A program made the position numbers and the translations under genes. From positions 22,038 through 86,037 of the forward strand of contig JBBUGM010000011.1 of the NCBI GenBank assembly GCA_038077975.1: a stretch of DNA of 64,000 nucleotides. Reading direction: 5' to 3'. Each line of letters begins with the position of its first letter. Position 1 is the stretch's first letter. Shown here piece by piece: positions 4,682-55,918 of this stretch. This DNA comes from Patescibacteria group bacterium. Lineage in GTDB: Bacteria > Patescibacteriota > Minisyncoccia > UBA6257 > 2-01-FULL-56-20. The notes below the pieces were generated by a model. The model had not been told where the DNA came from, searched no databases, and saw only the letters and a program-made list of their open reading frames with translations.

Positions 4682-4685
4682 TATA

Positions 4686-4826
4686 AAACTCTAAATTCTA
4701 ATTTCTAAATCCTAAACAAACTCGAAATTCAAATATCTAAATTTTAAACGTTTGTTATCTTGAATTTTGATTATTGGGATTTGTTTCGGATTTCGGATTT
4801 CGTGCTTCGGATTTCAGATTCTTTAG
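4686..4826. repeat. imperfect palindrome, TCTAAAT/ATTTAGA word family
   Basis: The left arm is in the rplO-rpsE spacer. The right arm is the 3' end of rpsE. Confidence 0.7.
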
Positions 4827-7107: not shown

Positions 7108-7118
7108 ATCAATGTTAA

Positions 7119-7226
7119 AGTTCTAATTTCTAAATTCTAAATTCTAAAAATCCCTTCGGGTTTAAAATTTTGAAATTTGATATTTGTGATTTGTTTAGAA
7201 TTTAGGATTTAGGATTTTTCAGCGGA
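7119..7226. repeat. imperfect palindrome, TCTAAAT word family
   Basis: TCTAAATTCTAAATTCTAAA ... TTTAGAATTTAGGATTTAGG with a central CCCTTCGGG hairpin. The right arm encodes the rplE C-terminus. Confidence 0.8.
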
Positions 7227-13319: not shown

Positions 13320-13460
13320 AATGTTTAAATCACAAATTACAAGCACCAGATCACAAACAATATCTAATTTCGAAATTCTAAATTCAAAATGTTTTGGTCA
13401 TTTGGATTTTATATTTTGAATTTGTTTGGGATTTGTTATTTGGAATTTGAAATTTTTGCC
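13320..13460. repeat. imperfect palindrome, AAATTC/GAATTT word family
   Basis: The arm ...CTAAATTCAAAAT pairs with ATTTTGAATTTG.... The right arm encodes the rplC C-terminus ISNSK. Confidence 0.7.
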
Positions 13461-14685: not shown

Positions 14686-14757
14686 GGATTACTAAATTAC
14701 GAATTTCTTACGAAAATACGAATTCGTACTATTCGTACTTATTCGTAATTTCGTAAC
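14686..14757. repeat. imperfect palindrome, ACGAAT word family
   Basis: Centre TACGAATTCGTA with imperfect flanking arms. Fills the tuf-rpsJ spacer. Confidence 0.75.
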
Positions 14758-17273: not shown

Positions 17274-19394
17274 CTATCTTCTTTTACCCTCAACAATAAG
17301 TTGGGCTATATTGCCAGGAACTATCTCGTATTTGAAGAATTCCATCACAAACGACCCGCGTCCCTGTGTCATTGAACGCAATTCCGTGGCGTAGCCGAAC
17401 ATTTCGGAGAGCGGCACTAGCGCGTCTATCACTTTTACGCCAATACGGTCGGAAAGCTCTTCGATCCGCGCGCGCTTGGAGTTCAGGTTCCCAGTAACCT
17501 CGCCCAAGAAATCGGGCGGCACGATGACCTGCACTTTCATGATCGGCTCCAGGATTGCGGGTTTCGCGCGCCGCACTGCTTCCTGAAGAGCGATCGAACC
17601 GGCGATTTTGAAAGCCGCCTCCGAAGAGTCAACTTCGTGGAAAGAGCCGTCGTAAAGCGAAACTTCTATGTCGGTCAAGGGGTAGTGCGCAAGGACGCCT
17701 TTGTCCATCGCTTCTTTAACTCCCTTCTCGACTGGAGTAATGAACTCTTGGGGTATGATGCCTCCTTTGATGTCATCGACGAATTCGAATCCTTTGCCGC
17801 GCTCGAGCGGTTTAACCTTAAGCCATACGTGTCCGTACTGCCCGCGACCTCCCGATTGGCGAATGTATTTTCCTTCCGCTTCGGATGTTCCGGTGATCGT
17901 TTCCTTGTAAGCCACCTGCGGCCGGCCAACCGAGGCATCAACGCTAAATTCGCGCTTCATCCTGTCGACGATGATCTCTAGGTGCAATTCACCCATGCCG
18001 GAAATGATGGTCTCTCCGGTGTCGGGGTCACCGGCAACGCGGAATGTCGGGTCTTCCTCTGCTAAGCGGTGCAGAGCCGTACCCATTTTCTCCTGGTCGG
18101 CTTTGGTTTTGGGTTCGATGCGGATGCCGATGACCGGCTCCGGGAACGTGATCTTCTCCAAGACGATCGGATTCGCTGGATCGCAAAGCGTATCCCCTGT
18201 CGTCGTGTTCTTGAGGCCGACTATCGCCGCGATGTCGCCCGCGTAGACCTCTTCAACTTCTTCGCGTTTGTTGGCGTGCATGCGCACAACCCGCCCGATG
18301 CGCTCCTGCTCGCCTTTCGTCGTATTCAAAATATATGAACCGCGCTTCAGCACTCCGGAATAATTTCGGAAAAATGCGAGCGTGCCGACGTACGGGTCCG
18401 TTGCTATCTTGAACGCCAGAGCGGAGAACGGCTGATTGTCGTCCGCGGTACGCGAAAGTTCGGCGCTCGTCTTGGGATCGATGCCTTTAACGGGAGGAAG
18501 ATCTGTTGGAGCCGGAAGATAGTCAACCACGGCATCAAGCACAAGTTGCACTCCCTTGTTTTTCAGAGCCGAACCGCAAAAAACAGGCACGATCTTATTT
18601 TCGAGCACAGCTTTCCGCAAAATTCTTTTCAAATCGTCGAGCGCCGGCTCACTGCCTTCGAGATATTGATGCATTAAGACATCGTCATTTTCGACTATCT
18701 TCTCCAAAAGTTCCCCGTGCCTAAGCTTCACTTCGTCGCTGAATGATTCAGGAATCGGGATTTCAACAATGTGCTCACCGTGTTCGCCCTGAAATTCAAA
18801 TGCTTTCTTTTGAAGCAAGTCGATGACCCCTCTAAAGGCGCCTTCGAGGCCGATCGGGATCTGCACCGGCACAGCATTCGGGGTTAAGCGATCGAGAATG
18901 GATTTATAGCTTTTCTCGAAACTCGCGCCCATGCGGTCGAGCTTGTTGATGAAGCAGATCCTCGGCACAGAGTACTCGTCCGCGTACCTCCAGTTAGTTT
19001 CCGACTGCGGCTCCACCCCGGCGACGCCGTCAAAAACGACAACAGCCCCGTCCAAAACTCGGAGCGAGCGCTTCACTTCAACCGTAAAGTCAATGTGGCC
19101 CGGCGTGTCGATGATATTTATGCGATATTCGTGCTCTTTGCTCTTTGCGCTTTGCTCTTTGCTGAAATATGTCGGCACCCAAAAAGTCGTGGTTGCGGCG
19201 GAGGTGATGGTAATTCCCCTTTCGCGCTCCTGTTCCATCCAGTCCATCACAGTGTCTCCCGTGTGTACTTCACCTATTTTGTGAGAAATTCCTGTATAAA
19301 AAAGCACCCGCTCGGATACGGTGGTTTTTCCGGCATCGATGTGGGCAATGATACCGATATTTCTTACTCTCTCAATTGGATAACTTCTGGGCAT
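17274..19394 (-). CDS. fusA: elongation factor G
   Basis: 706 aa. Motifs [14 protein letters not shown] and NKLDR. Confidence 0.97.
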
Positions 19395-21225: not shown

Positions 21226-21636
21226 TTACTTAGGTCTTTTTGTCCCATACTTCGACCTCTGCTGCTTCCTACCTTCAACCCCTGTCGTATCCATCACGCC
21301 GCGGACGACGTGGTAACGCACGCCCGGAAGGTCTTTAACGCGCCCGCCGCGAATGACAACGATCGAGTGCTCTTGCAAGGCGTGGCCTTCGCCGGGGATA
21401 TAAGCGGTTACCTCCATGCCGTTCGTAAGCCGCACGCGGCAAACTTTGCGGAGCGCGGAGTTCGGCTTCTTCGGAGTCGTGGTAAATACTTTAAGACACA
21501 CTCCTCTTTTAAAGGGCGAAGGCGAATCCACTGGCCGATTTTTGATGGTATTAAAATAGTACGACAAAGCCGGCGATTTCGTTTTCGCCTTAACGACTTT
21601 TCGTCCTTTTTTAATTAACTGACTGACTGTGGGCAT
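21226..21636 (-). CDS. rpsL: 30S ribosomal protein S12
   Basis: [12 protein letters not shown] start (M51 of the listed ORF) and [11 protein letters not shown] core. Confidence 0.95.
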
Positions 21637-21733
21637 ATCGAGAATATAGAATAGAGAATATAGTAGAAACATGCAAGTCGTGCACACTAGATGATACCAA
21701 AGAAAATGCTGGCTGACTAGGTCAGTCGGCGAT

Positions 21734-21765
21734 AAAAAGTGTGGGGGCAGAACGTGTCTGCCCCC
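21734..21765 (-). terminator. intrinsic terminator after the 102-aa ORF
   Basis: GGGGGCAGA-CACGT-TCTGCCCCC then ACACTTTTT. Confidence 0.6.
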
Positions 21766-21772
21766 GTTAGTT

Positions 21773-22081
21773 TCAGCGGTTGGCATACCCCACAGAAGGC
21801 GGGGTATACACTTCTCTTCCTTCGGCCGTGGACTGTTGCACCTCCCGCACTTTCACGCACTCGCCAATGTCGAACGAATACGCGGTACAGGTCGAATGGA
21901 TACAGCCGTGCTCCGTGCTGACTTCTCTTGCCGTGAGCAGGTGCGGACCAGTGTTCCGCTCTGCCACGTAAAGGTCGCCGGACCGGATTTCACCCTCGTC
22001 CATCTCGAGCAAGATGCCGCCGAAGTCGACGACCGCTCCACTCCGAAGGGCTTTCAATGTGCGATACTCTCTTCCGAACAT
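21773..22081 (-). CDS. hypothetical protein
   Basis: 102-aa ORF. Strong RBS AAAGGAGG sits 5 nt before the ATG. A hairpin plus T-run at 21734-21765 follows the stop. Confidence 0.45.
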
Positions 22082-23767: not shown

Positions 23768-25591
23768 TTAAAACGGCAATAGCGGTCTGAAGACCTCGAG
23801 AAGATTTCCTCCGCCCGACTGGAGCGCATAGCACTTCTTGATCGCCTCGAGCACTTCCGGAGACGGCGGCTGATACTGTAAACTTCTCACCACTTCTTCG
23901 CTTAAAGAATTCTTAAGGCAGGAAATGACTTCGGGCGGAAAGGACGGCAGCGACGCCGGTTCAATGTTTTCCGACTTGCAACCGTAATATACTCCGCATT
24001 CGGGAGATTCGAACACGACAAACTTGTTCTGTCCGGGCGGGCATTCATTTACTGTAGGCATTGCCGGGCAAATACTGCCGGGAGATGGCAGTACACCGCC
24101 GCCGCTTGGCGGTTGAACTCCTGCTCCTGTTCCGGATTCATAGAAACACCGCTTAACCGCCTCGGCGAATTTCTCCCCCGAGATCGTGCCTGCTTTCAGT
24201 TGCTCTAAAACCCCTTCTCCTAAAACACGCTTCGCACAGCTTAAAACATCCGGCGGCAAGTTCTCGAAACCAAACTCTCCCGGTGCGCCGCCAGGCAACA
24301 CGCCACCCTCGCGCGGCGGAGCAAACTGTTCAAAACAAGAGCGGATATTGTCGCCAAGCTCAAGCGTCGGAGCTATTTTGCCCTCGCGAATCGCATCGAA
24401 ATCAACTCCAACCTTCACGCGGATGCAATTTAACACCTCTTGCGGCGCACCTTCAAAAACCTCTCCGGGAATTCCTCCCTGGCCAAACCTTTCGAAACAT
24501 TCGTGAACCTTCGTGCCGATTGCGGGGCCGGGAACAAGCGTACCGGCTTCAATTTCTGTAATGATGTTTGGACCGAGAGAGGATTTAAGGCAAGCGACAA
24601 CTTCTTCCGGCGCCTGCTCTAGTCCAATTCGCAAACTGGCAACCCCTTCTTTGAGGTGACGCAGTTCTTCCTCCGGCACTAAACCGTATTCTTGCGCGAA
24701 TTTGAAACAATCTTCCTGGTGCTCCGGCGTGTTGCAATACGCTTCACATTCGCGCGGACCGCGGCAGCCGCCTGGGCCCATGCCGCCGGTCTTGCGGATC
24801 AATGCCGCCTGTTCCGGAGGAATAAGGCCGACTTTCTCGCCGAAAGAAACACATTCTTCAAAATGATCTGGGTTTTGGCAGTACGACTCACATTCATTCT
24901 TAGATCTGCAACCACCCGGCGTCTCGCCTTTTTTAGCGAGTTCCAAGAACTTCTGGAACTGACCGGGAGGAATGTTCCCCTCTCCGCCATGCGTTATCGC
25001 GAGTCCGGCTTTCTCGGCGAAAGCGAAACACTCTTCGGCATGGTCAAAGTTACTGCAGTACGCTTCACAGGATTCCTTCGAATTACAGCCGCCGGGCATT
25101 TGGCCGCCGGAACGAATGTAGCTCAAAACTTTCCTGCCTTCGGCAACGTTTTCATCCTTTACCCCGTTCTTTTCCGCAAAAGCAATGCATTCTTCGATGT
25201 GTTCGGTATTGGAACAATAAGTATTACATTCGCGCGGAGATCTGCAGCCGCCGGGACCTCCGGCCTCCAGCCGGTCTCTGAACTTCCTTGCGAACCCGGC
25301 TTCTTCTTGACTCATCAAACCGTGCGCTTCGGCAAATGCGATACATGCCTCCATGTTTTCCGGCTGCTCGCAATAGGATTTACATTCGGATTTGTCTCGA
25401 CAGCCGCCAAGCTCAGCGACAGGGAAAACAATGCCGGCTTCGTCGATTTCCGCTTCCGTCGGCTCCGGCCCGCCTTGACTCGCGCTCGGCGAGGCAGGCT
25501 CCTCGGCAAAAGCAACGATGGCAAAACTAATAAGAAGCGCCGCAGTTAAAACGGATGCAACTAAAATAAATTTGGTTTCTATTCGCGGCAT
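23768..25591 (-). CDS. secreted Cys-rich tandem-repeat protein
   Basis: 607 aa with an N-terminal TM/signal segment. Five copies of GGC-x5-C-x3-C-x8-C-x2-FAE. Followed by four copies of a second single/double-Cys module. Confidence 0.7.
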   Translation of the reverse strand: MPRIETKFILVASVLTAALLISFAIVAFAEEPASPSASQGGPEPTEAEIDEAGIVFPVAELGGCRDKSECKSYCEQPENMEACIAFAEAHGLMSQEEAGFARKFRDRLEAGGPGGCRSPRECNTYCSNTEHIEECIAFAEKNGVKDENVAEGRKVLSYIRSGGQMPGGCNSKESCEAYCSNFDHAEECFAFAEKAGLAITHGGEGNIPPGQFQKFLELAKKGETPGGCRSKNECESYCQNPDHFEECVSFGEKVGLIPPEQAALIRKTGGMGPGGCRGPRECEAYCNTPEHQEDCFKFAQEYGLVPEEELRHLKEGVASLRIGLEQAPEEVVACLKSSLGPNIITEIEAGTLVPGPAIGTKVHECFERFGQGGIPGEVFEGAPQEVLNCIRVKVGVDFDAIREGKIAPTLELGDNIRSCFEQFAPPREGGVLPGGAPGEFGFENLPPDVLSCAKRVLGEGVLEQLKAGTISGEKFAEAVKRCFYESGTGAGVQPPSGGGVLPSPGSICPAMPTVNECPPGQNKFVVFESPECGVYYGCKSENIEPASLPSFPPEVISCLKNSLSEEVVRSLQYQPPSPEVLEAIKKCYALQSGGGNLLEVFRPLLPF

Positions 25592-26109: not shown

Positions 26110-26283
26110 GTGGAATTATACAACTCTGCTCGAACATTTTTTGAACGAAACTGACCGCCTCCGCTTACCGCCTGCGCCGAGGCTTCGGCGGGCAGGCGCT
26201 CCGGCGGAACGCTCGGGCGTGGCGGAATCCCCCCGCCCCCCTTCCGCCGCGCCCTCGCGGGAGGCCAAAATTTTTCGCCGCTA
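26110..26283. repeat. left arm of a long inverted repeat (174 bp)
   Basis: Reverse complement of 27593-27759, with 2 substitutions and one 7-nt indel block. Confidence 0.9.
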
Positions 26284-26582: not shown

Positions 26583-27584
26583 ATGTCAAATTTTGAAGAA
26601 CAACCACAATTTACACCGAAGCAAAAACAGAATAGTGTCGAGCACAACATGGGTGGTGTTAGTGTTGAAACATTAACCGAAGAGCTTGAGAAGTTGCGCG
26701 CGCAAGAAAAAATTTCTGAGGTGGAAATTCCTACTCTATTTGAAAAAATAAATAGAAAAATACTTACACAAGTCGGTGAACACCCCGAAGATGAGTTATT
26801 AAGACAGCTTGCTGAACGAAAGGCAGAAATATTTCGATCGATTTTGGAAAGAATGCAAGCGACATGTGGCGACCGTGGCAATTTTGAAGCGTTGGAAGGA
26901 GCAGCAAAAATTATGACGACGGAGGGAAGACATGTATTTGGTGAAGATATAAATCGGCCATATTTTGATGTACGAACACAAAAAATATATATGGGTCCAG
27001 AGGCAACAAGAATACTTGCTAACCCCGATATTCTAATTGCCTTGCTTGCGGCGAAAGGGTCAAGTGGCGCAGCCAATGATTTACACCATGAGTTTATACA
27101 TTCCCATCAAGTTAGAAAAACACAAACAAGTAAGGAAAAGCTCGTGGAAGCATTGAACATTTTTGGAGATAAGAATCTTCTTCTAAAAGAAGTTCATGCT
27201 CTGATAGGCGCAGATAGGAAAGGCAACGGGAAACGAATTGAAATTGGCAAGCTTCACGAAGAATTAAGCAGCGATTCTTACGGGTTAATTTCAACAGAAG
27301 AAGATGTGCGTCGTTTGAAAAATGCCGCGCTAAGAGTAAAGCAGTTGTATGCGCTCGGTTTTTCAGATGAAAGCATTGGGGGGTTGGTGGGCAGGACAAA
27401 ATGGGATAAAAAATCAGGAACTTATAATACTCTTGCATCTGAGGTTGAAAGAGTAATGCGCGACAGAAATTTATCCGAGAACGAAATTGCTAGTTTAGTG
27501 AAAGCGGATGAATTAAAAACTAGATTAAGGATCGAGAAAACGAGAATTGCTGCAAAAGAGGTTGTTGAGGGGTTTTTGAAATAA
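26583..27584 (+). CDS. hypothetical protein with an HExxH motif (putative metallopeptidase partner of the XRE regulator)
   Basis: 333 aa starting 4 nt after the XRE stop. HHEFIH motif mid-protein. The pairing resembles ImmR/ImmA-type modules. Confidence 0.6.
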   Translation: MSNFEEQPQFTPKQKQNSVEHNMGGVSVETLTEELEKLRAQEKISEVEIPTLFEKINRKILTQVGEHPEDELLRQLAERKAEIFRSILERMQATCGDRGNFEALEGAAKIMTTEGRHVFGEDINRPYFDVRTQKIYMGPEATRILANPDILIALLAAKGSSGAANDLHHEFIHSHQVRKTQTSKEKLVEALNIFGDKNLLLKEVHALIGADRKGNGKRIEIGKLHEELSSDSYGLISTEEDVRRLKNAALRVKQLYALGFSDESIGGLVGRTKWDKKSGTYNTLASEVERVMRDRNLSENEIASLVKADELKTRLRIEKTRIAAKEVVEGFLK

Positions 27585-27592
27585 TTTCTTAA

Positions 27593-27759
27593 TAGCGGCG
27601 AAAAATTTTGGCCTCCCGCGAGGGCGCGACGGATGGGGGGATTCCGCCACGCCCGAGCGTTCCGCCGGAGCGCCTGCCCGCCGAAGCCTCGGCGCAGGCG
27701 GGAAGCGGAGGCGGTCAGTTTCGTTCAAAAAATGTTAGAGCAGAGTTGTATAATTCCAC
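27593..27759. repeat. right arm of a long inverted repeat (167 bp)
   Basis: See 26110-26283. The outer end carries an outward-facing TTCAAA-18-TATAAT. Confidence 0.9.
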
Positions 27760-32190: not shown

Positions 32191-32958
32191 CTAATATCGA
32201 CCTATGTTTATTATTTTAGCAAACTCCCTTGCGTCCAAGCTGGCACCTCCGACAAGCGCGCCGTCGATCTCATTATGCTTTAGAAAGTTAGCAGCGTTTT
32301 TACTCGTAACCGAACCGCCGTATAAAATACGAGAATTTAGAATAGAGAATTTAGAATAGAGGGTTTTTTTAATAAATTTTGCCATCTCGACCGCTTCTTC
32401 CGGTTTATCGGCGCGGCCTGTGCCGATTGCCCAGATGGGCTCATAGGCAACAACTAGACGAGAATTTAGAATGTAGAATTTAGAATGTAGAATTTTTTTG
32501 ATACCTTGCAGATTTTGGCGAAGCTGGTTCCCAACGAATTGCTTCGCGGTGGAGAGACCGTTGCGGCGCACGGCAAGCGGTTCACCGACGCAGAGAATGA
32601 CCCTGAGGTCGGCGGCAAACGCGGCTTTAACTTTTTTATTTATCATTTCGTCGGTTTCGTTAAGCCACCTCCTTCGCTCGGAGTGGCCGATAATTACATA
32701 TGAAGCCCCGAGCGATTTCAACATCACGGGCGAGACCTCTCCTGTATAAGCGCCTTTCTCTTCCCAAAAAACATCTTGGGCACCGAGTCGAGGGTTTAGG
32801 TTTGAGGTTTTAGGTTTTAGTATTTCTAAAACCTGTTTCAAATATGGAAACGGCGGGCAGATAACGACGTCAACGCCTTTTGGCCCGCGAAAATGCCGCC
32901 ACTCGCCGAGAGGCGGCATGTTGAGCTTCCAGTTCGCGACGATAAGCTTCTTCGCCAT
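32191..32958 (-). CDS. tpiA: triosephosphate isomerase
   Basis: Contains ANWKLN, GHSERR, AYEPIWAIGTG and YGGSV. Three surface loops are encoded by repeat words. Confidence 0.9.
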   Translation of the reverse strand: MAKKLIVANWKLNMPPLGEWRHFRGPKGVDVVICPPFPYLKQVLEILKPKTSNLNPRLGAQDVFWEEKGAYTGEVSPVMLKSLGASYVIIGHSERRRWLNETDEMINKKVKAAFAADLRVILCVGEPLAVRRNGLSTAKQFVGNQLRQNLQGIKKILHSKFYILNSRLVVAYEPIWAIGTGRADKPEEAVEMAKFIKKTLYSKFSILNSRILYGGSVTSKNAANFLKHNEIDGALVGGASLDAREFAKIINIGRY

Positions 32959-33929: not shown

Positions 33930-33960
33930 AAGCTCCGCTTATAAGCGGAGCTTTTCGTTT
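33930..33960 (+). terminator. intrinsic terminator
   Basis: AAGCTCCGCTTATAAGCGGAGCTT plus TTCGTTT. Confidence 0.75.
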
Positions 33961-33962
33961 GG

Positions 33963-34033
33963 TGGACCTACGGGGAATTGAACCCCGACCTCCTCCATGC
34001 CATGGAGGCGTAATGCCGTTTTACTATAGGCCC
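33963..34033 (-). tRNA. tRNA-Ala (anticodon GGC)
   Basis: Acceptor GGGCCTA/TAGGTCC with G3:U70. Anticodon arm CCTCC-ATGGCAT-GGAGG. CCA encoded (33960-33962). Confidence 0.9.
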
Positions 34034-34034
34034 G

Positions 34035-34107
34035 TACCCCCAGCAGGAATCGAACCCGCATCTTTCCCTTAGGACGGGATTGCTCTTATCCATTGAGCTA
34101 TGGGGGC
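34035..34107 (-). tRNA. tRNA-Arg (anticodon CCT)
   Basis: Acceptor GCCCCCA/TGGGGGT, D arm GCTC..GAGC, loop GTCCTAA, T arm GCGGG-TTCGATT-CCTGC. Only 1 nt separates it from tRNA-Ala(GGC). Confidence 0.8.
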
Positions 34108-34727
34108 ATATTAACTTCTGAGGAAACACTTTTTATTATAGACTGTATAACGTTAAGCAAGTGACCACCCTTTTTGACTGCAATCCTGCATATTCCATAA
34201 GTTGTTTTCCCTCTTTTGCCGCCATCGTTATAGTACGCCCGAATTTTGTTTTTGTTAACACCGGTACATCTTGACCAATATTTTACGCATCGGTTACGAT
34301 TCATCCCGGTGAAGTATCTCACGGTAATTGATAGCGCGTTTCTATTTACGCCGTAACGCGCGCGCAAAAGTTTTATATACATTTTCACCATTTCGCCATT
34401 TGTATTGGTGAAAATACATCCTCTTTTTGAATTGCCCTCTGCCCAATATAGCATCGCGAGAATGACACAATAGTATTTGTTGGGGCCAGCCATAATTTTA
34501 TCTGCTTCTAAGGCCGCTTTTTCTCTTTCAGCTTGAGCACGCTTACGACTTCCCCCTTGTTTTCCTTTTAAAATCTTGCTATATTTTGGAGAAATCTTGA
34601 GTCGGTGGACATGGTGCCAAACTGTTGTTTTTGGAACAGAAAACATTTTGACCAACTCGTTGATACTGTAACCGCGCCTCCGCAATCTCTTTAGAGATTC
34701 TACCTTTTGCCTTGAGTGTATATGCAT
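34098..34727 (-). CDS. HTH domain protein with a LAGLIDADG-like core (putative homing endonuclease)
   Basis: 209 aa. N-terminal HTH (GYSINELVKMFSVPKTTVWHHV). A single LYWAEGN motif followed by an alpha/beta core. The last 10 nt overlap tRNA-Arg(CCT). Confidence 0.55.
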   Translation of the reverse strand: MHIHSRQKVESLKRLRRRGYSINELVKMFSVPKTTVWHHVHRLKISPKYSKILKGKQGGSRKRAQAEREKAALEADKIMAGPNKYYCVILAMLYWAEGNSKRGCIFTNTNGEMVKMYIKLLRARYGVNRNALSITVRYFTGMNRNRCVKYWSRCTGVNKNKIRAYYNDGGKRGKTTYGICRIAVKKGGHLLNVIQSIIKSVSSEVNMPP

Positions 34728-39196: not shown

Positions 39197-40102
39197 CTAG
39201 TATTCATATACATCCACCAGCTTCCCCGCTTTGTCGAATAAGAGAACTCTGTCGTGGTCGGGGTCGAGGAACGTGTTCCTCGTCCATGCGCGGAATTCGT
39301 GCGAAAGGAAATCCGAGTCGAACCTGTGGCGGGAATAACAGCCGCTCAAATTTATTTCGTCCAAATAATCCGGGCAAACATAATCCGTTTCCGGCACGGG
39401 AGGATTTGAACTCGGCAATTTACAGGAACGTAGCGAATCAATATAATCCTCGCAGGCGCCCATCACGCGGCTCATATCGAAGTCGTTAACGGGGTTGGGA
39501 CAGCTTAATGGCAGTGACGGAACAAATTTATTTCTTGCCTGGAGATACCCTGTGCATTTGTTGAGCCGCAAATTAAGGCCGATGGCGCTTTGGCCATAGT
39601 AAATATTCAAATAGCCGCCGCTCTCAAGCTGTATATCCGATTCCGCGGCAAGCCCGGACGGCTCATAAATGTTCACCGCGCGCGGAATAATAAAACTGCC
39701 CCTCCTTCCCTGCATCACCCAGCCGGAAATATTTATCGTGCCAGTTCCTTTAAAACTCGCTTTAAGCGCCGTGCGGCTTGATGTAAAAGACATTCTCACC
39801 TCGCGGAAATATATAGAAAGGTCCTCCGCCGTAAACCCCGACGGAATAAGCCGCGGATCTATCGCCGGCTTAATTTCTTCTTCTGTTGGAACAGACGTTT
39901 TAACGCCGGTTTGTCCGGGATATATTGAAGTGGAACCTGTCCTCGGCACCCTCTCCGAACTTAAACGCGGCGTGCTCGTACTACTCAAAGAGAACCCTTT
40001 CACAAAATCACTGATGCCGCCGGGAGCGCCGGAGGTAAAAAAGAAAACTATGCCGCCCAAGACAACCACAAAAATTAGAACTGTTAGTATTTTGCCGCCC
40101 AT
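39197..40102 (-). CDS. hypothetical membrane-anchored extracytoplasmic protein
   Basis: 301 aa with an N-terminal TM segment. Possible lamin-tail-like beta domain (weak). Confidence 0.5.
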   Translation of the reverse strand: MGGKILTVLIFVVVLGGIVFFFTSGAPGGISDFVKGFSLSSTSTPRLSSERVPRTGSTSIYPGQTGVKTSVPTEEEIKPAIDPRLIPSGFTAEDLSIYFREVRMSFTSSRTALKASFKGTGTINISGWVMQGRRGSFIIPRAVNIYEPSGLAAESDIQLESGGYLNIYYGQSAIGLNLRLNKCTGYLQARNKFVPSLPLSCPNPVNDFDMSRVMGACEDYIDSLRSCKLPSSNPPVPETDYVCPDYLDEINLSGCYSRHRFDSDFLSHEFRAWTRNTFLDPDHDRVLLFDKAGKLVDVYEY

Positions 40103-40186
40103 AATGGTGAATAAAATCCTAAACTCTAAATTCTAAATCCTAAACAATCTCAAAATCGCAAACGGCTTAATTACCAAATAGCATAA
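40103..40186. repeat. TCTAAAT word-family spacer
   Basis: ATCCTAAACTCTAAATTCTAAATCCTAAAC. I found only one arm. Confidence 0.5.
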
Positions 40187-43100
40187 TTACTCAATTACAA
40201 TGTTTACCAGTTTGCCCCTTACATAAACCACCTTTTTTATGGTGAGCGGAGTCGAACCATTCGGAGATTTCCCTTCCAAGTATCTTTGCACCTTTTCGCT
40301 TCGGAGCGCAATGTTCTTCGCATCTTCTTCGGTAATGTTAGCATCCACCTCGAAGGTGTCGCGCACTTTGCCATTCACCTGCACGACAAGCGTAATTTTT
40401 TCCTCTTGGATAAGTTTTTCGTCATACTCCGGCCATTTTTCGAAATCAAGATAGGTCTTGTTGCCAAGTTGAGACCAAAGTTCTTGAGCAAGGTGAGGGG
40501 CGAAAGGATGAAGCAGTTTTATAAATTTCTCTAATTGATGGGTTTTAAAAGCAGTGTTGGATAACTGCCCCGTTGCTCCAGGCAATAAAGGACCCGCTTC
40601 TTCCTCTTCGTGTATTTCGTTAAAAAATATCATCAACGACGATATTGCCGTATTAAATTTAAAAGATTGAATATCATCCCCAACTTTTTTAATTGTTTTG
40701 TGCAAAAACGTGTCTATGACTCTACTTTTTTTGTTCTCTGGAGCATTGTCTACATTTTCTCTGTTTTTTCTTTCGCTCCAGCGCTCAAAATATCTTCTGA
40801 TCTTTCCCAGAAATCTTTCCATCCCCAAAACGCCTTTCGGGTCCCACGGCTGGCCCTGCTCAAAGGGGCCCATGAACATTTCGTAAAGGCGCACGGTGTC
40901 CGCGCCGAACTCACCGACAATTTCGTCTGGATTAACAACATTGCCCTTCGATTTCGACATCTTCTGTCCGTCTTCGCCCAAAATTAGGCCTTGGTGGCGC
41001 AACTTCAAAAACGGCTCTGAAAAATTTAGATAGCCGATATCATGCAAAAATTTTGTAATGAAGCGCGCGTAAAGAAGGTGGAGCGTCGTGTGCTCTGCGC
41101 CGATGACGTATAAGTCCACCGGAAGCCACTCTTTCGCTTTTTTCTTATCAAAAATTTCTTTCTCGTTCGCCGGGTCCGTATAACGCAAGAAGTACCACGA
41201 GGAATCAACAAACGTGTCGAGAGTTTCGGGGTCGCGTTTGGCATCGCCGCCGCACTTAGGGCACACCACGCTCATAAATTCTTTGGAGCTCGCCAAAGGC
41301 GGCACACCTTTGGGGCGATAATTTTTGAGGGGCGGAAGCATTACCGGCAAATCTTTCTCCGGCACGGGAACAATTGCGTGTTTAACGCCGTCGATGATTG
41401 TTGTTCGTTGCCCTTCGACAAGCTCAGGGGATAAACTTTTTGATTTAGAAGATATACTTGGTGAGCCTGTCGAACCATTTCCAATTTCCCAGCATTTATG
41501 GCAATAAATGATGGGTATCGGCACTCCCCAGTAGCGCTGGCGGGAAACGGACCAATCGCGCAAACGGTATTGCACTTTCCGCCCTCCTCCCGCAAATTCC
41601 GTTATCTCCCATTTCGCTGTCTCCGATGTCCTGCCGTCGAACTTGCCGGAATTAATGAGCAGTCCTTCGCCCGTATATACGGATCCCGAATTCAGCTTTT
41701 CATTCCAAAGCTCAACTTCCGCATGCGTCATGTTCTCGTAATTCAACTTCGATTTGTCGAGCCAAATTACGTCATGAGATTCCCTCTCTTCTTTGCCTAT
41801 CTCCACTTGCTTATGGTCTACAAGCTCGAAAACTACCGCTGTTGTGTATGAAACTCTATTTTCGTCCTTGTGTGCGGCAAAATATTCGGCTCTGGCTTGA
41901 CCATCCAGAACTTTGACCAATTTTAGATTCACGAATCCGGTTTCTTCCTCCACTTCCCGTTTTGCGGCTTCGACAACGCTCTCGCCGTCTTGTATCCCGC
42001 CCATCGGAAATGTGGTCCAGTTGAACTTTCTCCATTTAAGCCCGAGGTATTTGCCCGTTTTAGGGTCCTTCACTATCGCATGGACATTCTTCCTTTCGAC
42101 GAATTTTTTGCCGTCAACCGGAGGATTGCGCTTGTCGATAATGTTCGGAACAACCACTTCTTTTATCGGCAATTCAAATTTTTTTGCGAACTCGAAGTCG
42201 CGCCCATCATGCGCCGGGACGGCCATGATCGCCCCCGTGCCATAACCCATCAAAACGTAATCCGCGATCCACACCGGAATTTCTTCCTTCGTCGCCGGAT
42301 TTATCGCTTTCACGCCTTTGAGCTCAACGCCTGTCTTACTATGCCCTGAACCAGTCGAAGGGTCATTCTCTCGCATCCTTTGCAGTTCGGTCTTATGTTT
42401 TGCCTTCTCGACATATTTCTCTACCTCTTTGAAATTTGTAATTTGGTGCTTGAAATTTTCGATGAGCTGGTGCTCGGGAGCGAGAACCATATAAGTTGCA
42501 CCAAAAAGCGTATCCGGTCGAGTGGTGAAAACTGTTATAACCTCCAAAAGGTTTCGCAAAACTTCCGGCTCTTCGGCGGCACAAGCGTGAGGTTTTTCCG
42601 CAACGAAATCCACCAACCGCCCACCAAAAAGTTCAGTAAGTTTTGCCGGTTGGTATTGCGGCACTGCGTCGTCCGTGAGATCCCTGAGCGATAAAAGTGA
42701 GCCAACGTTTTTGCTTATCTTCTTAATGTCGAACTTCCAGTCGAAAGTTTGTGGCTCAAAATTATCGTCGTCGACAAATTTATTCTCGGTAAACCCTCCC
42801 ACCAAAATCGTTTTTCTGACCGGCCGTTTTACCCTCTCAAGCACCTTTAAGGCCACGACTGTTCCCAAACTGTGTCCCAAAATCACGCTGTTCTCATCGA
42901 AAGAAACTGTTTTTAATGCGTGCTCCACCTGATCGTAAACTCTCGGATCGCCAGAATTTGGCAATTCTGGCGCCTGAACTTTATAGCCGCGGTTTGCTAA
43001 CTCTTTTTTGAGCCACGGGAAAAAGTTTTTCTCCGGCGACCCCCTATATCCATGTAGTAAAACAAAATTCGGTTTTTTTGAAAATTGTGAATTGGAAATT

Positions 43101-43795
43101 GGAAATTCTATAATCGCTCCCTCTGACTTCCCTATCCAGTCCTTCTGGCGCTTCGCGGATGATTCAGGCCAATCAAGTCCGTTTAAGTCCGCGAGCAGTT
43201 TGTCCGCGTAGTCCGTTATCCTCAAGAACCACTGCTCCATTTCCTTCTGCTCCACCTCCGCGCCACAACGCTCACAGCAACCGTTCACGACCTGCTCGTT
43301 TGCCAAAACCGTTTGGTCCTTGGGGCACCAATTAACCGTCGCCTTCTTGCGGTAAGCCAATCCTTTTTCGAAAAGTTTTATAAAAAGCCATTGTGTCCAT
43401 TTGTAGTAATCGGGACTTGAAGTGTTTATCTCGCGATCCCAGTCGTAGGAAAGGCCGAACATCCGCACTTGCCGTTTGAAATTTTTGATATTCTCTGCGG
43501 CAACTTCCTGCGGCGCTTTTCCGACTTTGATGGCATAATTTTCCGTTGGAAGCCCGAAGGCGTCCCAGCCCATCGTATAGAGCACGTCATGCCCATTCAT
43601 ACGCATAAAGCGCGCGTGAATGTCCTCTGCGATATAGCCCTTGGGGTGCCCGACGTGCAGGCCAGCCGCCGAAGGATACGGAAACGTTTCAAGTTGATAG
43701 TATTTCTTCTTCGGCTTATCGCTCGCCTTGAAAACTTTCTCCTTTAACCAGCGTTCCTGCCACCTTTTTTCTATTTTGCGAAAATCATATTTCAT
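40187..43795 (-). CDS. leuS: leucyl-tRNA synthetase with inserted serine-hydrolase and NUDIX domains
   Basis: HVGH (HIGH), KMSKS, the editing-domain motifs TTRPDT and GTGAIMAVPAHD. 1202 aa versus about 800-860 typical. Confidence 0.95.
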   Translation of the reverse strand: MKYDFRKIEKRWQERWLKEKVFKASDKPKKKYYQLETFPYPSAAGLHVGHPKGYIAEDIHARFMRMNGHDVLYTMGWDAFGLPTENYAIKVGKAPQEVAAENIKNFKRQVRMFGLSYDWDREINTSSPDYYKWTQWLFIKLFEKGLAYRKKATVNWCPKDQTVLANEQVVNGCCERCGAEVEQKEMEQWFLRITDYADKLLADLNGLDWPESSAKRQKDWIGKSEGAIIEFPISNSQFSKKPNFVLLHGYRGSPEKNFFPWLKKELANRGYKVQAPELPNSGDPRVYDQVEHALKTVSFDENSVILGHSLGTVVALKVLERVKRPVRKTILVGGFTENKFVDDDNFEPQTFDWKFDIKKISKNVGSLLSLRDLTDDAVPQYQPAKLTELFGGRLVDFVAEKPHACAAEEPEVLRNLLEVITVFTTRPDTLFGATYMVLAPEHQLIENFKHQITNFKEVEKYVEKAKHKTELQRMRENDPSTGSGHSKTGVELKGVKAINPATKEEIPVWIADYVLMGYGTGAIMAVPAHDGRDFEFAKKFELPIKEVVVPNIIDKRNPPVDGKKFVERKNVHAIVKDPKTGKYLGLKWRKFNWTTFPMGGIQDGESVVEAAKREVEEETGFVNLKLVKVLDGQARAEYFAAHKDENRVSYTTAVVFELVDHKQVEIGKEERESHDVIWLDKSKLNYENMTHAEVELWNEKLNSGSVYTGEGLLINSGKFDGRTSETAKWEITEFAGGGRKVQYRLRDWSVSRQRYWGVPIPIIYCHKCWEIGNGSTGSPSISSKSKSLSPELVEGQRTTIIDGVKHAIVPVPEKDLPVMLPPLKNYRPKGVPPLASSKEFMSVVCPKCGGDAKRDPETLDTFVDSSWYFLRYTDPANEKEIFDKKKAKEWLPVDLYVIGAEHTTLHLLYARFITKFLHDIGYLNFSEPFLKLRHQGLILGEDGQKMSKSKGNVVNPDEIVGEFGADTVRLYEMFMGPFEQGQPWDPKGVLGMERFLGKIRRYFERWSERKNRENVDNAPENKKSRVIDTFLHKTIKKVGDDIQSFKFNTAISSLMIFFNEIHEEEEAGPLLPGATGQLSNTAFKTHQLEKFIKLLHPFAPHLAQELWSQLGNKTYLDFEKWPEYDEKLIQEEKITLVVQVNGKVRDTFEVDANITEEDAKNIALRSEKVQRYLEGKSPNGSTPLTIKKVVYVRGKLVNIVIE
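41411..41476. repeat. hairpin-forming element inside leuS (TTCGACAAGCTCA ... TGAGCCTGTCGAA)
   Basis: 13-nt arms with one mismatch and a 35-nt loop. Translated in frame as GSTGSPSISSKSKSLSPELVEG. Confidence 0.8.
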
Positions 43796-43928: not shown

Positions 43929-44783
43929 TTAGACCTCTACGCCAAAAACATTTTTCGCGTTTCGGGCGATAGCTTCTGCCATTTTTTCGACAGAAACATT
44001 CTTAAGTTCCGCAAGTTTTTTTACAACTTCCGTTACATATGCCGGTTCATTGCGCTTGCCGCGATACGGAACTGGTGCGACATACGGCGCGTCGGTTTCG
44101 GACAGTATCGCCTCAAGCGGGAGCATCTTTATTACTTCGTCGTAGTCACGGGCGAAGGTGATTACGCCGCCGAAGGTGAAAGCGAATCCGAGATCGAGCA
44201 ATTTTTTCGCTTCGTCTTTTCTGCCGGAGAAGAAATGAATTATTCCAGGAGCAGTAGGTAGTAGGTAGTGAGTAGTATGTAGTAGTTCTATCAAATCGGG
44301 AAATGCCGCGCGGCAGTGGATCATCAATGGCTTTTTAACTTCGTGCGCAAGTTCAATCTGCGCCGAAAACCCTTCTTGTTGTTTTTCTACCGTTTTTTTG
44401 TCCGCGTCAGTCAGCGTTCGGTCAGCGTTAGTCCGCGACTGAAGGCGAAAGTAGTCCAATCCGCATTCCCCAAGTGCCACCACTTCCGGTTCACCTGCCA
44501 GCTTGCGCAATGCATCAACGTCCAATCTCTCCCGCTCTTTCTCCGCCTGCTCGTTCTTATCGTGATACCAATTTTCCGAAAAATGAGCGGGGTGAAAACC
44601 GACTGTGGCCCAAACATCTCCTTTATGCGTTTTTGCGTAATTCACGGCGCTCTCGGAACTAGTATATTGCGTGCCCACGGTTATCATTTTTACGCCGGCT
44701 TTTTTTGCTCGCGCGAAAACATTCTCGCGGTCGTCATCATAGGCGGGAAAGTGTATGTGCGTGTGGGCGTCTAAAAAAGTCAT
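43929..44783 (-). CDS. tatD: TatD family metal-dependent hydrolase
   Basis: DAHTHIHF start, GECGLDYF and IHCR motifs. Two low-complexity inserts. Confidence 0.9.
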   Translation of the reverse strand: MTFLDAHTHIHFPAYDDDRENVFARAKKAGVKMITVGTQYTSSESAVNYAKTHKGDVWATVGFHPAHFSENWYHDKNEQAEKERERLDVDALRKLAGEPEVVALGECGLDYFRLQSRTNADRTLTDADKKTVEKQQEGFSAQIELAHEVKKPLMIHCRAAFPDLIELLHTTHYLLPTAPGIIHFFSGRKDEAKKLLDLGFAFTFGGVITFARDYDEVIKMLPLEAILSETDAPYVAPVPYRGKRNEPAYVTEVVKKLAELKNVSVEKMAEAIARNAKNVFGVEV

Positions 44784-47154: not shown

Positions 47155-48636
47155 TCAAACGAGTCGGGGAAAAAGCGGCTCGATTTTTTTGACGTGCAAG
47201 TTGTTCCCTTCCCAAATTATGCTTTTGGTTATTTTCTCCGCCGTTTCGGGCAAGAAAGGCAAAAGTAAGGCGGCAACATTGTCGAGCAGAACCACGAGGT
47301 CTGAAACAACACAAATCTTGTCCTCTTCGTGCTCGATGTCCCATGGTTTTTTCTTATTGATATAGCCGTCGCCGAACTGAATAAGTTTCCAAATCTCGGC
47401 GAGCGCTTCGTGCAGTTTAAATTCGGCGATCTTCACTTCCACCATTTTCTTCGCGGCCTCGATTTGCTTCGCCACAACTGCGGACGGGCCGATACACCCT
47501 CTTAGATTTTCTAGCGTCGCTCCTAGTGTCATAACACGCGATGCGAAATTGCCGAGCCCGTTCGCGAGATCGCCGTTGTAGCGCTCGCGGAACTTCTTCT
47601 CGCCCCAATCGCCGTCTTCATGCGACGGAATTTCGCGCAAAAGATAGTAGCGGACCGCATCGGTGCCATATTGCTTCACGAGTGCGAAGGGATCGACAAC
47701 GTTCCCAAGCGTCTTAGACATTTTCTTGCCTTCGACGCCGACAAAACCGTGGACGAAAATGTTATTCGGCAGAGGCAAACCGGCAGACAAAAGCATCCCC
47801 GGCCAGATAGCGGCATGAAAGCGCAAAATGTCTTTGCCGATAAGGTGGACGTCCGCCGGCCACCATTTTTGAAAATTCTTGCCACTTGTCTCTTGTCTCT
47901 TGTCGCTTGTCTCCAATCCAAATCCTATTGCCGAGAGATAGTTCGTCAAAGCATCGCACCAAACATATATTATCTGTGAGTCGTCCCCGGGCACGGGAAT
48001 TCCCCACTCCAAGTCCTTCCTCGGGCGCGAGAAACTCACGTCTTCGAGTCCCGATCTGATAAGCGACATTATTTCGTTCTTACGGCTGTAGGGAAGTATG
48101 CGCAATTCATCGTTCTTGATCATCTCCCCTATATTCTTGCCGTACTTCGACAGCCGGAAAAAATAATTCTCTTCTTCGATAACTTCCGGCTCCGCGCCGT
48201 GGTCGGAACATTTTCCCTGCGCAAGGTCTTTCTCCGTCACAAATGATTCATGGCCAACGCAGTAAAGGCCTTTGTAGGCCTTTTTATAGATATCACCGGC
48301 CTCGACCAACTTATTCCACATCATCTCGACACCGGGCCAATGGCGAGTTTTGTCCGTCGTTCTTATGAAGTCGTCTGGAGATAAGTTGAGCGCGTCTTTT
48401 AACGCCTTAAATTTTTCGACCAGCTCGTCGACGAATTTCTGCGGCTCCATTTTTGCCGCCTGGGCCGCGCGCGCGATCTTCGCGCCGTGTTCGTCCGAAC
48501 CGGTCAAGAAAAAAACATCGTCTCCGCGGAGGCGATGGTATCGCGCGAGAACGTCTGCCTGGACTTTCTCAAGCGCGTGGCCTATGTGAGGCGGCGCGTT
48601 CAAATAATCAATGGCGGTTGTGATGTAAAACTTCAT
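47155..48636 (-). CDS. metG: methionyl-tRNA synthetase (short form)
   Basis: PPHIGHA and KMSKTLGN motifs. 493 aa. Confidence 0.95.
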   Translation of the reverse strand: MKFYITTAIDYLNAPPHIGHALEKVQADVLARYHRLRGDDVFFLTGSDEHGAKIARAAQAAKMEPQKFVDELVEKFKALKDALNLSPDDFIRTTDKTRHWPGVEMMWNKLVEAGDIYKKAYKGLYCVGHESFVTEKDLAQGKCSDHGAEPEVIEEENYFFRLSKYGKNIGEMIKNDELRILPYSRKNEIMSLIRSGLEDVSFSRPRKDLEWGIPVPGDDSQIIYVWCDALTNYLSAIGFGLETSDKRQETSGKNFQKWWPADVHLIGKDILRFHAAIWPGMLLSAGLPLPNNIFVHGFVGVEGKKMSKTLGNVVDPFALVKQYGTDAVRYYLLREIPSHEDGDWGEKKFRERYNGDLANGLGNFASRVMTLGATLENLRGCIGPSAVVAKQIEAAKKMVEVKIAEFKLHEALAEIWKLIQFGDGYINKKKPWDIEHEEDKICVVSDLVVLLDNVAALLLPFLPETAEKITKSIIWEGNNLHVKKIEPLFPRLV

Positions 48637-51003: not shown

Positions 51004-51115
51004 TTGCGGTAAAAACTCTAAATTCTAATCTCTAAACTCTAAACAAATTCAAATATCTAATTTCAAAACCCGAAGGGTCGTTTAGGATTTAGTGTTTAGA
51101 ATTTAGGATTTGCAA
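51004..51115. repeat. imperfect palindrome, TCTAAAT word family
   Basis: CTCTAAATTCTAATCTCTAAACTCTAAAC ... GTTTAGGATTTAGTGTTTAGAATTTAGGA with a central CCCGAAGGG hairpin. Confidence 0.8.
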
Positions 51116-55674: not shown

Positions 55675-55918
55675 AACGCTTGAAAAATTGATTTAATTAT
55701 TCTAATTGACCTAATTTCTAATCAATGACAAAAACTTATAAATTCCAAATTACAAGCGCCAAATTACAAACAAATCCAAATGAACAAAATCAAAAATTAC
55801 AAACCTTTTGAATTTCGAGCTTGTAATTTTGATATTGTTTGTAATTTGTAATTTGTGATTTATTATTTTTGCAGATTGGGATTTGATTAGATCAATTAGA
55901 GCAATTAGAAATTAGTAA
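55675..55918. repeat. 244-bp nested imperfect palindrome (CTAATT / AAATTACAA words)
   Basis: Outer arms TTCTAATTGACCTAATTTCTAATCA / TGATTAGATCAATTAGAGCAATTAGAAATTAG. Inner arms AAATTACAA / TTGTAATTT. Confidence 0.8.

Follow-up and report, generated by a model that had tools for sequence, protein, structure and literature searches.

In-frame heptanucleotide repeat arrays at three loops of triosephosphate isomerase in a Patescibacteria genome

Repeats whose unit is not a multiple of three nucleotides are normally purged from essential genes because a single slipped unit destroys the reading frame. What, then, are the non-triplet arrays that lie inside tpiA, fusA, metG, leuS and tatD of a streamlined Patescibacteria genome, and what kind of process would account for them? 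The locus in question is a stretch of 64,000 nucleotides (hereafter the window) from contig JBBUGM010000011.1 of assembly GCA_038077975.1 (positions 22,038 to 86,037), in which tpiA, the gene for triosephosphate isomerase (TIM), carries three such arrays. We consider it somewhat better than an even bet (a probability of about 55%) that these segments are translated and structurally tolerated heptanucleotide cassettes, which a genome-wide process acting at the DNA level generates, keeps periodic and sometimes rewrites, with selection filtering only for frame, stop codons and fold.

Three heptanucleotide arrays in tpiA

The tpiA gene (32191..32958, minus strand) encodes a TIM of 255 residues. 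Its identity is supported by the Pfam family PF00121 (E = 1.7e-74, with residues 5-251 aligned to profile positions 2-243 of 245), by 186 TIM sequences of the PDB that match it at E <= 0.001, the best being the Thermotoga maritima enzyme (E = 8e-54), and by an AlphaFold2 model (mean predicted local distance difference test score, pLDDT, 90.1; predicted template-modelling score, pTM, 0.90) whose eight strand/helix pairs form a (β/α)8 barrel. Foldseek superimposes this model on solved TIMs with TM-scores of 0.83-0.88 and root-mean-square deviations of 2.3-2.9. An identical protein is on record from a metagenome-assembled genome (MAG) of a 'Patescibacteria group bacterium', and the nearest relatives belong to Liptonbacteria, Wolfebacteria and Paceibacterota. 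The gene resides in a region of ribosomal-protein, EF-G and aminoacyl-tRNA-synthetase genes, mostly on the minus strand. As a preliminary description made from the sequence had stated, all catalytic motifs are intact: N9 and K11 in NWK, H92 in GHSERR and E173 in YEPIWAIGTG, together with the phosphate-binding loops YGGS and GGAS. Furthermore, K11, H92, E173, G181, S216 and G237 are all present and are invariant across 35 homologues. None of the catalytic or phosphate-binding residues overlaps an array in the codon view, and the protein is probably an active enzyme.

The three segments are all head-to-tail direct repeats of a 7-nt unit in at least three to four copies, as detected both with Tandem Repeats Finder (TRF) and with a scan for self-match at a lag of 7. 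The array at site 1 (32787..32835, minus strand) is made of CCTAAAA-type units, covers codons 47-57 and is read as LKPKTSNLNPR in the α2-β3 loop; TRF places it at 32791-32820 with a period of 7, 4.3 copies and 86% matches. Site 2 (32458..32497, minus strand), of the form (ATTCTAC ATTCTAA)x2 + ATTCTCG, covers codons 156-167 between α5 and β6 and is read as ILHSKFYILNSR (TRF: 32461-32495, period 14, 2.5 copies, 100% matches). Site 3 (32326..32361, minus strand), of the form (CTCTATT CTAAATT)x2 + CTCG, covers codons 200-210 and encodes LYSKFSILNSR at the end of α6 and in the loop before β7 (TRF: 32326-32361, period 14, 2.5 copies, 95% matches). The 14-nt periods represent paired 7-nt units, namely TCTAAAT together with TCTACAT or TCTCTAT, and the units TTCTAAA and CCTAAAA of the gene match those of the intergenic spacers of the window. 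The preliminary description had thus located the three segments correctly (to within 1 nt at the third), and its view that they belong to the repeat family of the spacers, read in frame and in loops, agrees with TRF, word counts, the codon view and the structural model.

In the model, site 1 lies between the helix formed by residues 37-47 and the strand 57-61; site 2 lies between helix 135-149 and strand 168-172, and includes the region of lowest confidence (pLDDT 74-76); and site 3 occupies the end of helix 186-204 and the loop ahead of strand 210-213. Short helices are modelled at site 2 and a longer helix α6 at site 3 with fair confidence. In TIM barrels the α-to-β connections face away from the catalytic β-to-α loops. 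All three arrays are accordingly predicted to lie on the non-catalytic face of the barrel, at α-to-β junctions. At the RNA level the sites differ. The first unit of site 1 pairs with an inverted arm within the coding sequence of α2 (GGTTTTAG ... CTAAAACC), and this hairpin, which the preliminary description had proposed as a palindrome within 32791-32835, proves to be real (-9.9 kcal/mol, z = -3.6); the closest relative of the window, the related locus L001, has an equivalent hairpin with a different left arm (z = -3.25). Sites 2 and 3 are unstructured, with a minimum free energy (MFE) of 0, and none of 200 shuffles folds less well.

The codons of the arrays are atypical of the genome (relative synonymous codon usage 0.82 versus 1.10; p = 1.5e-4), with CTA, the rarest leucine codon, being used four times. 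As 7 is not a multiple of 3, the units are read in all three frames and yield peptides with a period of 7 residues. It also follows that every position of the unit serves as first, second and third codon position, and that a unit, once homogenised, is left without silent sites; this reading in three frames would be a non-adaptive contributor to the conservation of the arrays. Stop triplets that an ideal repeat would contain are kept at 0 of 16 in-frame positions and at 21 of 32 out-of-frame positions, with the in-frame copies usually being one base off the repeat (e.g. TAA changed to TAC, TAT or TCA). The absence of in-frame stops is given by the intact open reading frame (ORF); the informative part is that the departures from periodicity are concentrated exactly at these positions. 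Such patching of stops is what translation and purifying selection acting on DNA of a non-coding type would produce.

The preliminary description had further noted that the TIM is of normal total length, and had proposed that native loops were replaced by repeat-derived sequence rather than extended. The length is indeed 255 residues; however, array-free Patescibacteria TIMs have only 232-239, and each of the three sites in the window is about 5-10 residues longer than in these. The usual length is thus a coincidence of three additions with a short loop1/α1 region. Relative to T. maritima TIM, site 1 is longer by 4 residues and site 2 by 7, and site 3 is shorter by 3. The nearest array-free orthologue is that of L090 (P0005), which is 75% identical to L001. 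In comparison with it, site 2 is a clean presence/absence of 30 nt between AAAAAA and TC(G/T), with no target-site duplication between the empty L090 site and the filled sites of the window and L001. Site 1 of L090 is 5 codons shorter and unrelated in sequence, and at its site 3 an array is already present. Replacement would thus fit site 3 alone, which has about the usual length of canonical TIMs, whereas site 1 is lengthened and site 2 is an insertion.

Arrays across the window and at the same TIM positions in relatives

To place these arrays in the context of the whole window, we counted arrays with a self-match of at least 16/21 at every period from 4 to 15, using block shuffles as a control. 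At period 7 there are 17 arrays in the window, compared to 0-1 at each of the other periods except the multiple 14, and shuffles yield a mean of 0.04. Together with TIM site 3, which was detected by TRF, this makes 18 arrays. Although the window is mostly coding, about half of them lie in or straddle spacers, and several arrays come to within a few to about 20 nt of a start codon or extend across a stop codon. The other half are inside genes: three in TIM and others in EF-G, MetRS, TatD, LeuRS and the C-terminal tails of the ribosomal proteins S5, L3 and L5. The YYCTAAA family dominates in the spacers and in tpiA, and at least 8 other unit types are present in these 64 kb of the genome. The word AATTTAGAAT occurs 24 times with at most one mismatch, compared to an expectation of 9.4 +/- 3.0, and none of 100 shuffles reaches 24. 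Words of the TCTAAAT family fill the spacers at 4685-4718, 7114-7152, 13358-13391, 40113-40148 and 51012-51111, and the TCTAAAT/CCTAAAC family often extends right up to the start codon.

We then compared TIM DNA obtained by exact-protein look-ups and by a scan of species-representative genomes (L-numbers are labels of the related loci). About 16 Patescibacteria genomes have period-7 arrays inside TIM, whereas the roughly 45 TIM genes compared from other phyla have none. Of the 26 arrays in the first set, 24 map to reference residues 39-60, 150-170 or 195-212; L171, L172 and L173 add nine more at the same three sites, and the other variable TIM loops are never hit in this comparison. At sites 2 and 3 the arrays stop 2-4 codons ahead of the AYEP or YGGS anchors, and the reading frame is intact in all 16 array-bearing genomes. 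The units themselves are diverse: TTCTAAA and CCTAAAA in the window and L001, AACCTAA in L003, CGCTTCA/CGCTCCA at all three sites of L004 (Liptonbacteria), ATGTCAA in L010 and L044, ATTCCCA and CTACTTG in L013, a GGCTAGT+CCCTAAA composite in L015, TATCACG, CTAAAAG and CAGCTGC in L172, and TCATNAG and CTTGTNN in L171. Likewise, the peptides encoded at the same site are unrelated between genomes, as exemplified by KFYILNSR, KPKTYNL, RFTLHASR, SGYTLNP, SVISHQSS and YKLKTKS. The preliminary description had concentrated on a single gene copy and on one repeat word, a focus that proves too narrow, as the relatives carry period-7 arrays of different units at the same three junctions. The invariant is the 7-nt period and the position, rather than the TCTAAAT word or the (I/F)(L/S)NS(R/K/Q) peptide.

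The excess of period 7 is also seen in the relatives, where 417 kb of related metagenome loci contain 41 such arrays compared to 1-16 for each other period; overall, 96 arrays comprise roughly 70 different units. Four period-8 arrays each were observed in L015 and L016, such that 7 is not the sole favoured period in every genome. Where TIM carries arrays, its flanking DNA has 1.56 arrays per 10 kb, as compared to 0.27 for the rest (Fisher p = 1.2e-5; p = 0.015 within Patescibacteria only), and in a subclade of higher GC content neither TIM nor its flanks have any. Within 4.1 kb of L172 there are six period-7 arrays, no two with the same unit, and two of these lie in recG. We also considered whether array-free relatives retain decayed arrays, but found no lag-7 signal at site 3 (0.18-0.37) in L005, L009, L011, L012, L018, L019, L020 and L028.

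Conservation of position does not extend to every gene. In the window, a fourfold AGCAAAG array (19127..19166, minus strand), specific to this genome, is read in frame in a loop of the EF-G G-domain, which has 18 residues as opposed to 13 in most of the relatives in which it could be read. Of the 80 related loci that were fetched, 53 yielded this loop, and most of these have no periodicity above 0.5; L107 alone has an array of its own (GGAAGCT). We therefore rejected position-conserved arrays as a rule for all genes, TIM being so far the only gene for which such conservation is shown. The AGCAAAG array resembles a local CAAAGAG word of relatives such as L132, as an example of how new arrays can arise from local sequence.

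Close comparisons between genomes reveal that the arrays are either conserved or replaced. L171 and L172 are 86% identical in nucleotides outside the sites (72% at third codon positions) and both have good arrays at all three sites, yet inside the sites identity is 29-41%, which is about random. Conversely, L172 and L173 have only 70% identity outside the sites (45% at third codon positions, near saturation), yet their site-1 arrays are identical at 30/30 bases (p ~ 2e-5). Between the window and L001 array identity is 35/36, and synonymous codons are identical at 28/34 positions in arrays versus 79/154 elsewhere (p = 0.001). At site 2 of L173 the unit CTCAATY is one base off TTCTAAA in all four copies, a change that also removes a stop; it is best read as a concerted change within the array and not as a new insertion. 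Gradual neutral drift as the sole cause of the differences in unit is contradicted by both the 30/30 identity at saturated divergence and the random-level identity of close relatives. The conserved-or-replaced pattern requires length-neutral homogenisation with occasional overwriting, or else direct selection on nucleotides.

Sequence is also shared between arrays of one genome. Sites 2 and 3 of the window have in common the exact 15-mer ATTCTAAATTCTCGT, which includes the non-periodic end and occurs exactly twice, both times in tpiA; a near-copy with 2 mismatches, ATTCTATATTCTCGA, directly precedes the start of rpsL (S12). This latter array is thus a paralogous copy of the TIM site 3 sequence. 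In L015, sites 2 and 3 have an identical 28-mer in common, and the TIM units of L004, L044 and L016 recur in other arrays of the same locus. Across the set, the longest common substring is larger within than between genomes (p = 8e-4 and 1e-5). Copying mainly between neighbouring TIM sites was considered and set aside, as TIM arrays do not share significantly more with one another than with the remaining arrays of their locus (p = 0.15).

Origin and maintenance of the arrays

These comparisons suggest that a repeat process acting on DNA, rather than selection on the protein, shapes these TIM loops. The period-7 arrays of four to five units belong to a class that pervades both spacers and genes of this Patescibacteria (Paceibacteria-type) lineage, and in tpiA they occupy three fixed positions, each just upstream of a β-strand. 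Under the reading that we favour, these positions are cassettes at which the protein tolerates 7-12 residues that are additional or changed. The arrays would be transcribed and translated as ordinary codons, with the one copy in which a TAA or TAG would come into frame carrying a single-base patch, and a genome-wide process would create, homogenise and occasionally overwrite them. Candidate mechanisms are replication slippage or tandem duplication with a 7-nt step, out-of-register conversion within arrays, and copying or template switching between arrays of the same genome; the molecular basis is probably one of slippage, conversion or copying. Purifying selection would remove only frame shifts, stops and disturbances of the fold, and the array peptides would have no function of their own. 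If the arrays are indeed such a mutational by-product, they imply an unusual replication, repair or recombination regime with a 7-nt step in Patescibacteria, and offer a natural experiment on the tolerance of TIM-barrel loops for arbitrary sequence, with all the TIM sites and the site in TatD being α-to-β and on the non-catalytic face.

Several points weigh against this account. The retention of some arrays at the nucleotide level far past the saturation of synonymous sites, as in L172/L173 and window/L001, is not predicted for a purely neutral by-product; it needs either that the nucleic acid itself is directly selected, or that frequent length-neutral homogenisation is coupled to selection acting on a unit which is read in all three frames. 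Perfect coding arrays cannot be upheld by ordinary slippage, as slippage by one unit would put an essential gene out of frame. The mechanism of homogenisation is a hypothesis, and neither an enzyme nor a donor mechanism emerged as a candidate. High slippage rates are likewise not demonstrated, since five assemblies of this population have no length polymorphism. Finally, array-rich genomes almost universally have the same two or three TIM sites filled, which exceeds what is seen in EF-G (2/53 readable relatives), and the TIM sites may be defined by something beyond the mere tolerance of a loop.

Another, distinctly less probable, version of a DNA-level origin is that core genes have fixed cassette positions at which arrays are maintained and overwritten by a dedicated lineage-specific system, or are selected as cis-elements, such that it is the periodicity and not the peptide that is selected or enforced. 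It draws on the finding that the arrays are conserved past saturated synonymous sites or replaced wholesale, always at the same codon-level positions.

A possible but tentative alternative is direct selection on the arrays as cis-acting elements of DNA or RNA, which would offer sites for binding, or landing pads devoid of structure, to a factor that reads the 7-nt periodicity, or would program slow translation before β-strands, with the spacer and coding arrays forming one regulatory system. The 30/30 identity set against 45% at third positions, together with the bias in synonymous codons (p = 0.001), is nucleotide conservation above that of the flanking gene, and the retention of rare codons such as CTA, the fully unstructured RNA of sites 2 and 3, and the fixation of positions across many genomes would all fit this proposal. 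So would the placement of the spacer arrays a few to about 20 nt from starts, as in the TAACTGA repeats of Beggiatoaceae that have been proposed as translational regulators (PMC4679880). However, the many unrelated units within a single genome (six in 4 kb in L172; at least 8 types in the window) render a sequence-specific factor unlikely. Moreover, the close relatives at 86% nucleotide identity have unrelated arrays at all three sites, and many sister lineages dispense with arrays altogether and have shorter loops. Only 1/6 spacer regions folds significantly, and no conserved motif, RNA family or partner was found, with Rfam having been searched for the window. Should the arrays nevertheless be kept for a nucleic-acid function, they would represent a new kind of cis-element embedded in core genes.

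[quoted passage not shown] The clean 30-nt presence/absence at site 2 between L001 and L090 would be expected of such insertion, as would the finding that separate loci of one genome have identical 15- to 28-mers in common, with the non-periodic end CTCG(T/A) included; RPEs, too, insert in frame into surface loops (PMC10969869). The inverted arm of site 1 resembles the palindromes of the spacers, and spacers with two opposed arrays forming hairpins of repeats are found in the window (51012-51111) and in relatives (L111 2923-2998, L143 2312-2388, L144 698-785 and L101 5556-5634). The units of these relatives are again genome-specific (GGCGCTA, CCATTGA, GTATTTA and GTAGTTT), and one such element ends just upstream of an EF-G match. 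Against mobility, sites 2 and 3 have neither terminal inverted repeats nor target-site duplications nor defined ends, the elements would be a mere 21-45 nt long with dozens of unrelated sequences per lineage, and no transposase is linked to the arrays. Insertion also fits poorly with the filling of the same three sites in nearly every array-rich genome while other variable TIM loops are never hit, with the apparently local derivation of the EF-G array, and with the one-base change common to all copies of CTCAATY in L173.

That the loop peptides themselves are selected, by stabilising strands or helices or by forming an interaction surface, with the repetitiveness of the DNA being secondary, is very improbable. 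It could draw on the SKF(Y/S/H)ILNS(R/K)-like peptides that recur at sites 2 and 3 of many homologues with an identity of only about 60%, and on the short helices at site 2 and the extended α6 at site 3, modelled with fair confidence. Yet the peptides at one site are unrelated between genomes with the 7-nt period of the DNA always kept, non-optimal codons are retained, array-free orthologues exist, and unrelated proteins as well as untranslated spacers contain these peptide words too.

The weakest alternative is an artefact of assembly or binning that put collapsed or chimeric repeats into the gene. Assemblers can be led astray by short repeats, and every dataset here is metagenomic; but arrays occupy the same TIM sites in MAGs of unrelated studies, the reading frame is intact with precise stop-avoiding patches, and five assemblies made independently from different samples of Hainich groundwater (GCA_964361345.1, ERZ1292640, ERZ1292638, ERR3858118 and ERR3858135) are 99.98-100% identical to the window across tpiA without gaps, leaving this explanation with practically no credence. 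The same comparison bears on the questions of collapse and length polymorphism that the preliminary description had raised: collapse is excluded, and no insertion or deletion affecting copy number was found among the five assemblies of this population at the consensus level, at which minority variants would be hidden.

Irrespective of origin, arrays of this kind have practical consequences. They yield low-complexity peptides, among them ILNSR and KPKTYNL, that recur without being homologous in the usual sense, and the lineage-specific 'insertions' they produce in proteins of the Candidate Phyla Radiation (CPR) can mislead alignment, phylogeny and domain annotation.

Known repeat systems and other arrays of the window

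Heptameric simple sequence repeats (SSRs) are a known but poorly understood class. The most similar system is that of the TAACTGA direct repeats, which are found between genes in marine Beggiatoaceae and some Cyanobacteria and Bacteroidetes (MacGregor 2015, PMC4679880). These occur genome-wide in 2-6 copies, mostly a few nucleotides upstream of start codons, including those of ribosomal-protein operons, and a role in translational regulation has been proposed for them; one orientation has stops in all frames and overlaps only the ends of ORFs, and a few reverse copies are translated (PMC4679880). The Patescibacteria arrays resemble them in being abundant tandem 7-nt direct repeats near start codons. 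However, in the TAACTGA case a single dominant unit is common to several phyla, whereas the Patescibacteria have dozens of largely genome-specific units; and the ORF-internal TAACTGA copies are at protein termini or in hypothetical proteins, whereas those described here are inside the folded products of tpiA, fusA, metG, leuS and tatD. Positions conserved across species (as seen for TIM), patching of stops and the conserved-or-replaced pattern have not been described for the TAACTGA repeats.

Other heptameric SSRs include GGGAATC in Xanthomonas and GGGGAYT in Nostoc, and this unit length is over-represented relative to other long periods in many bacteria (Rehm et al. 2015, PMC4692102); that paper also cites the STRR heptanucleotide repeats of heterocystous cyanobacteria (Mrazek 2007; Mazel 1990). 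These SSRs are mostly intergenic and near ORF ends, sometimes as inverted pairs, with orthologous loci of related species retaining the repeat while varying in its length and sequence, and their origin by polymerase slippage tied to a 7-nt footprint has been hypothesised (PMC4692102). The excess of period 7 and the placement near ORF starts and ends are likenesses to the arrays described here. In contrast, the GGGAATC and GGGGAYT units are G-rich and quadruplex-forming, and the Patescibacteria units are mostly A/T/C-rich and G-poor on the coding strand; further, SSRs of the Xanthomonas/Nostoc type belong to large genomes and have no reported conserved in-frame cassettes in housekeeping enzymes, whereas Patescibacteria genomes are streamlined. 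In these known heptamer systems, the copies internal to ORFs are peripheral.

RPEs are of about 100-150 bp, in about ten families, each encoding a conserved peptide (PMC10969869). The arrays are similar to RPEs and MITEs in that repeats of a non-coding type are translated in frame within unrelated housekeeping genes at positions compatible with the fold: the α-to-β junctions of TIM, and loops or termini of EF-G, MetRS, TatD, LeuRS, S5, L3 and L5. They differ in being 21-45 nt long, in consisting of 7-nt tandem units without defined ends or terminal inverted repeats (an inverted arm being present only at site 1), and in changing completely in sequence between close relatives with the position unchanged. 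No multi-copy element of the RPE/MITE type with conserved ends was found, common sequence being limited to 15-28 nt and sites 2 and 3 folding at MFE 0. Phase-variable contingency loci (PMC3315296, PMC11868660) likewise have non-triplet SSRs within coding regions, where slippage by one unit would switch the gene off. The hosts here are essential housekeeping genes rather than surface or restriction-modification genes, and the copies are only 4-5 and interrupted. No frame-switching variation in repeat number was found, the arrays being identical in the five assemblies and the frame intact in the 16 genomes. A search of the literature for heptamer arrays in Patescibacteria or CPR bacteria returned nothing relevant, and we did not find a description of three features: the occurrence in Patescibacteria, the fixed positions of cassettes in a core enzyme across species, and the conserved-or-replaced turnover with genome-specific units.

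The remaining arrays of the window illustrate the range of contexts. In the ribosomal-protein region, an intergenic TCTAAAT-family array lies directly upstream of the start of the L15 gene (4685..4718), and a GAAATCC-type array encodes the C-terminal tail of S5 (4782..4811, minus strand). The spacer at 7114..7222 has two opposed arrays (TCTAAAT ... TTTAGGA) around a CCCTTCGGG centre, with the right array reaching the last codons of L5. In the spacer at 13358..13455, with TCTAAAT and TTTGGAA arrays, the right-hand array encodes the ISNSK* end of L3. Another array lies directly 5' of the rpsL start codon (21636..21669, minus strand) and has TTCTCTATTCTA[T/A]ATTCTCG in common with TIM site 3; the longest ORF for rpsL (21226-21786, minus strand) over-extends, as the canonical N-terminus of S12 starts at about 21633.

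Among the synthetases and other enzymes, a CAATTTC-type array (43077..43112, minus strand) is read in frame in LeuRS as PISNSQFSKK, at the junction before an inserted α/β-hydrolase domain. The peptide words that the preliminary description had pointed out in L3 (ISNSK) and LeuRS (ISNSQFSKK) are indeed present, and both the AKISNSK* end of L3 and FPISNSQFSKK of LeuRS are encoded by AATTTCN-type heptamer arrays. This LeuRS (40187-43795, minus strand; 1202 residues) has both a Pfam α/β-hydrolase domain (residues 242-348) and a NUDIX domain (residues 569-688) inserted in the synthetase. A CTACTAC-type array (44249..44285, minus strand) encodes HTTHYLLPT in TatD, another enzyme with the TIM-barrel fold, between a helix and the GIIHFFSG strand, likewise an α-to-β connection, and a fivefold GAGACAA array (47875..47918, minus strand) is read in frame in MetRS as ETSDKRQETSGK. 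Further intergenic arrays are a CCTAAAC/TCTAAAT array upstream of the gene at 39197..40102 (40113..40148), a TTTGTAA-type array at 55832..55871, detected by both TRF and the scan, and the hairpin at 51012..51111, both arms of which are opposed heptamer arrays (-29.3 kcal/mol, z = -4.6).

Several generic roles for the arrays were considered and rejected. As hairpins or terminators they are poor candidates, as only 1/6 spacers (51004-51120, z = -4.6) folds better than shuffles. A Rho-utilisation-like YC periodicity, judged by eye, does not apply to the EF-G AGCAAAG and MetRS GAGACAA arrays, which have no YC dimers, and pairing of spacer arrays with the 3' tail of 16S rRNA is disfavoured by the genome-specific units, the window itself holding no rRNA. 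Among known RNA families, Rfam detects only six tRNAs in the window.

A few observations concern other parts of the window. The GC skew is negative over almost all of 1-64000, consistent with a single replichore in which the minus strand is the leading strand. A second spacer repeat family, of TTCGTG/TTCGTA words about 10-12 nt apart, is found in ribosomal-protein operon spacers (7765-7825, 9180-9240, 8189-8208, 14722-14775 and 24496-24515), with two near-identical copies of about 60 nt starting with ACGAATAAACGCTAA. Inverted repeats of 174 nt with 93.7% identity (26110-26283 and 27593-27759) flank an ORF of 333 residues (26583..27584) without a Pfam match, and this segment could be mobile or invertible. 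Finally, the genes for tRNA-Ala(GGC) and tRNA-Arg(CCT) adjoin without a spacer (33960-34107), and a 209-residue ORF with a weak helix-turn-helix match (34098-34727, minus strand) overlaps the latter by about 10 nt at its 3' end.

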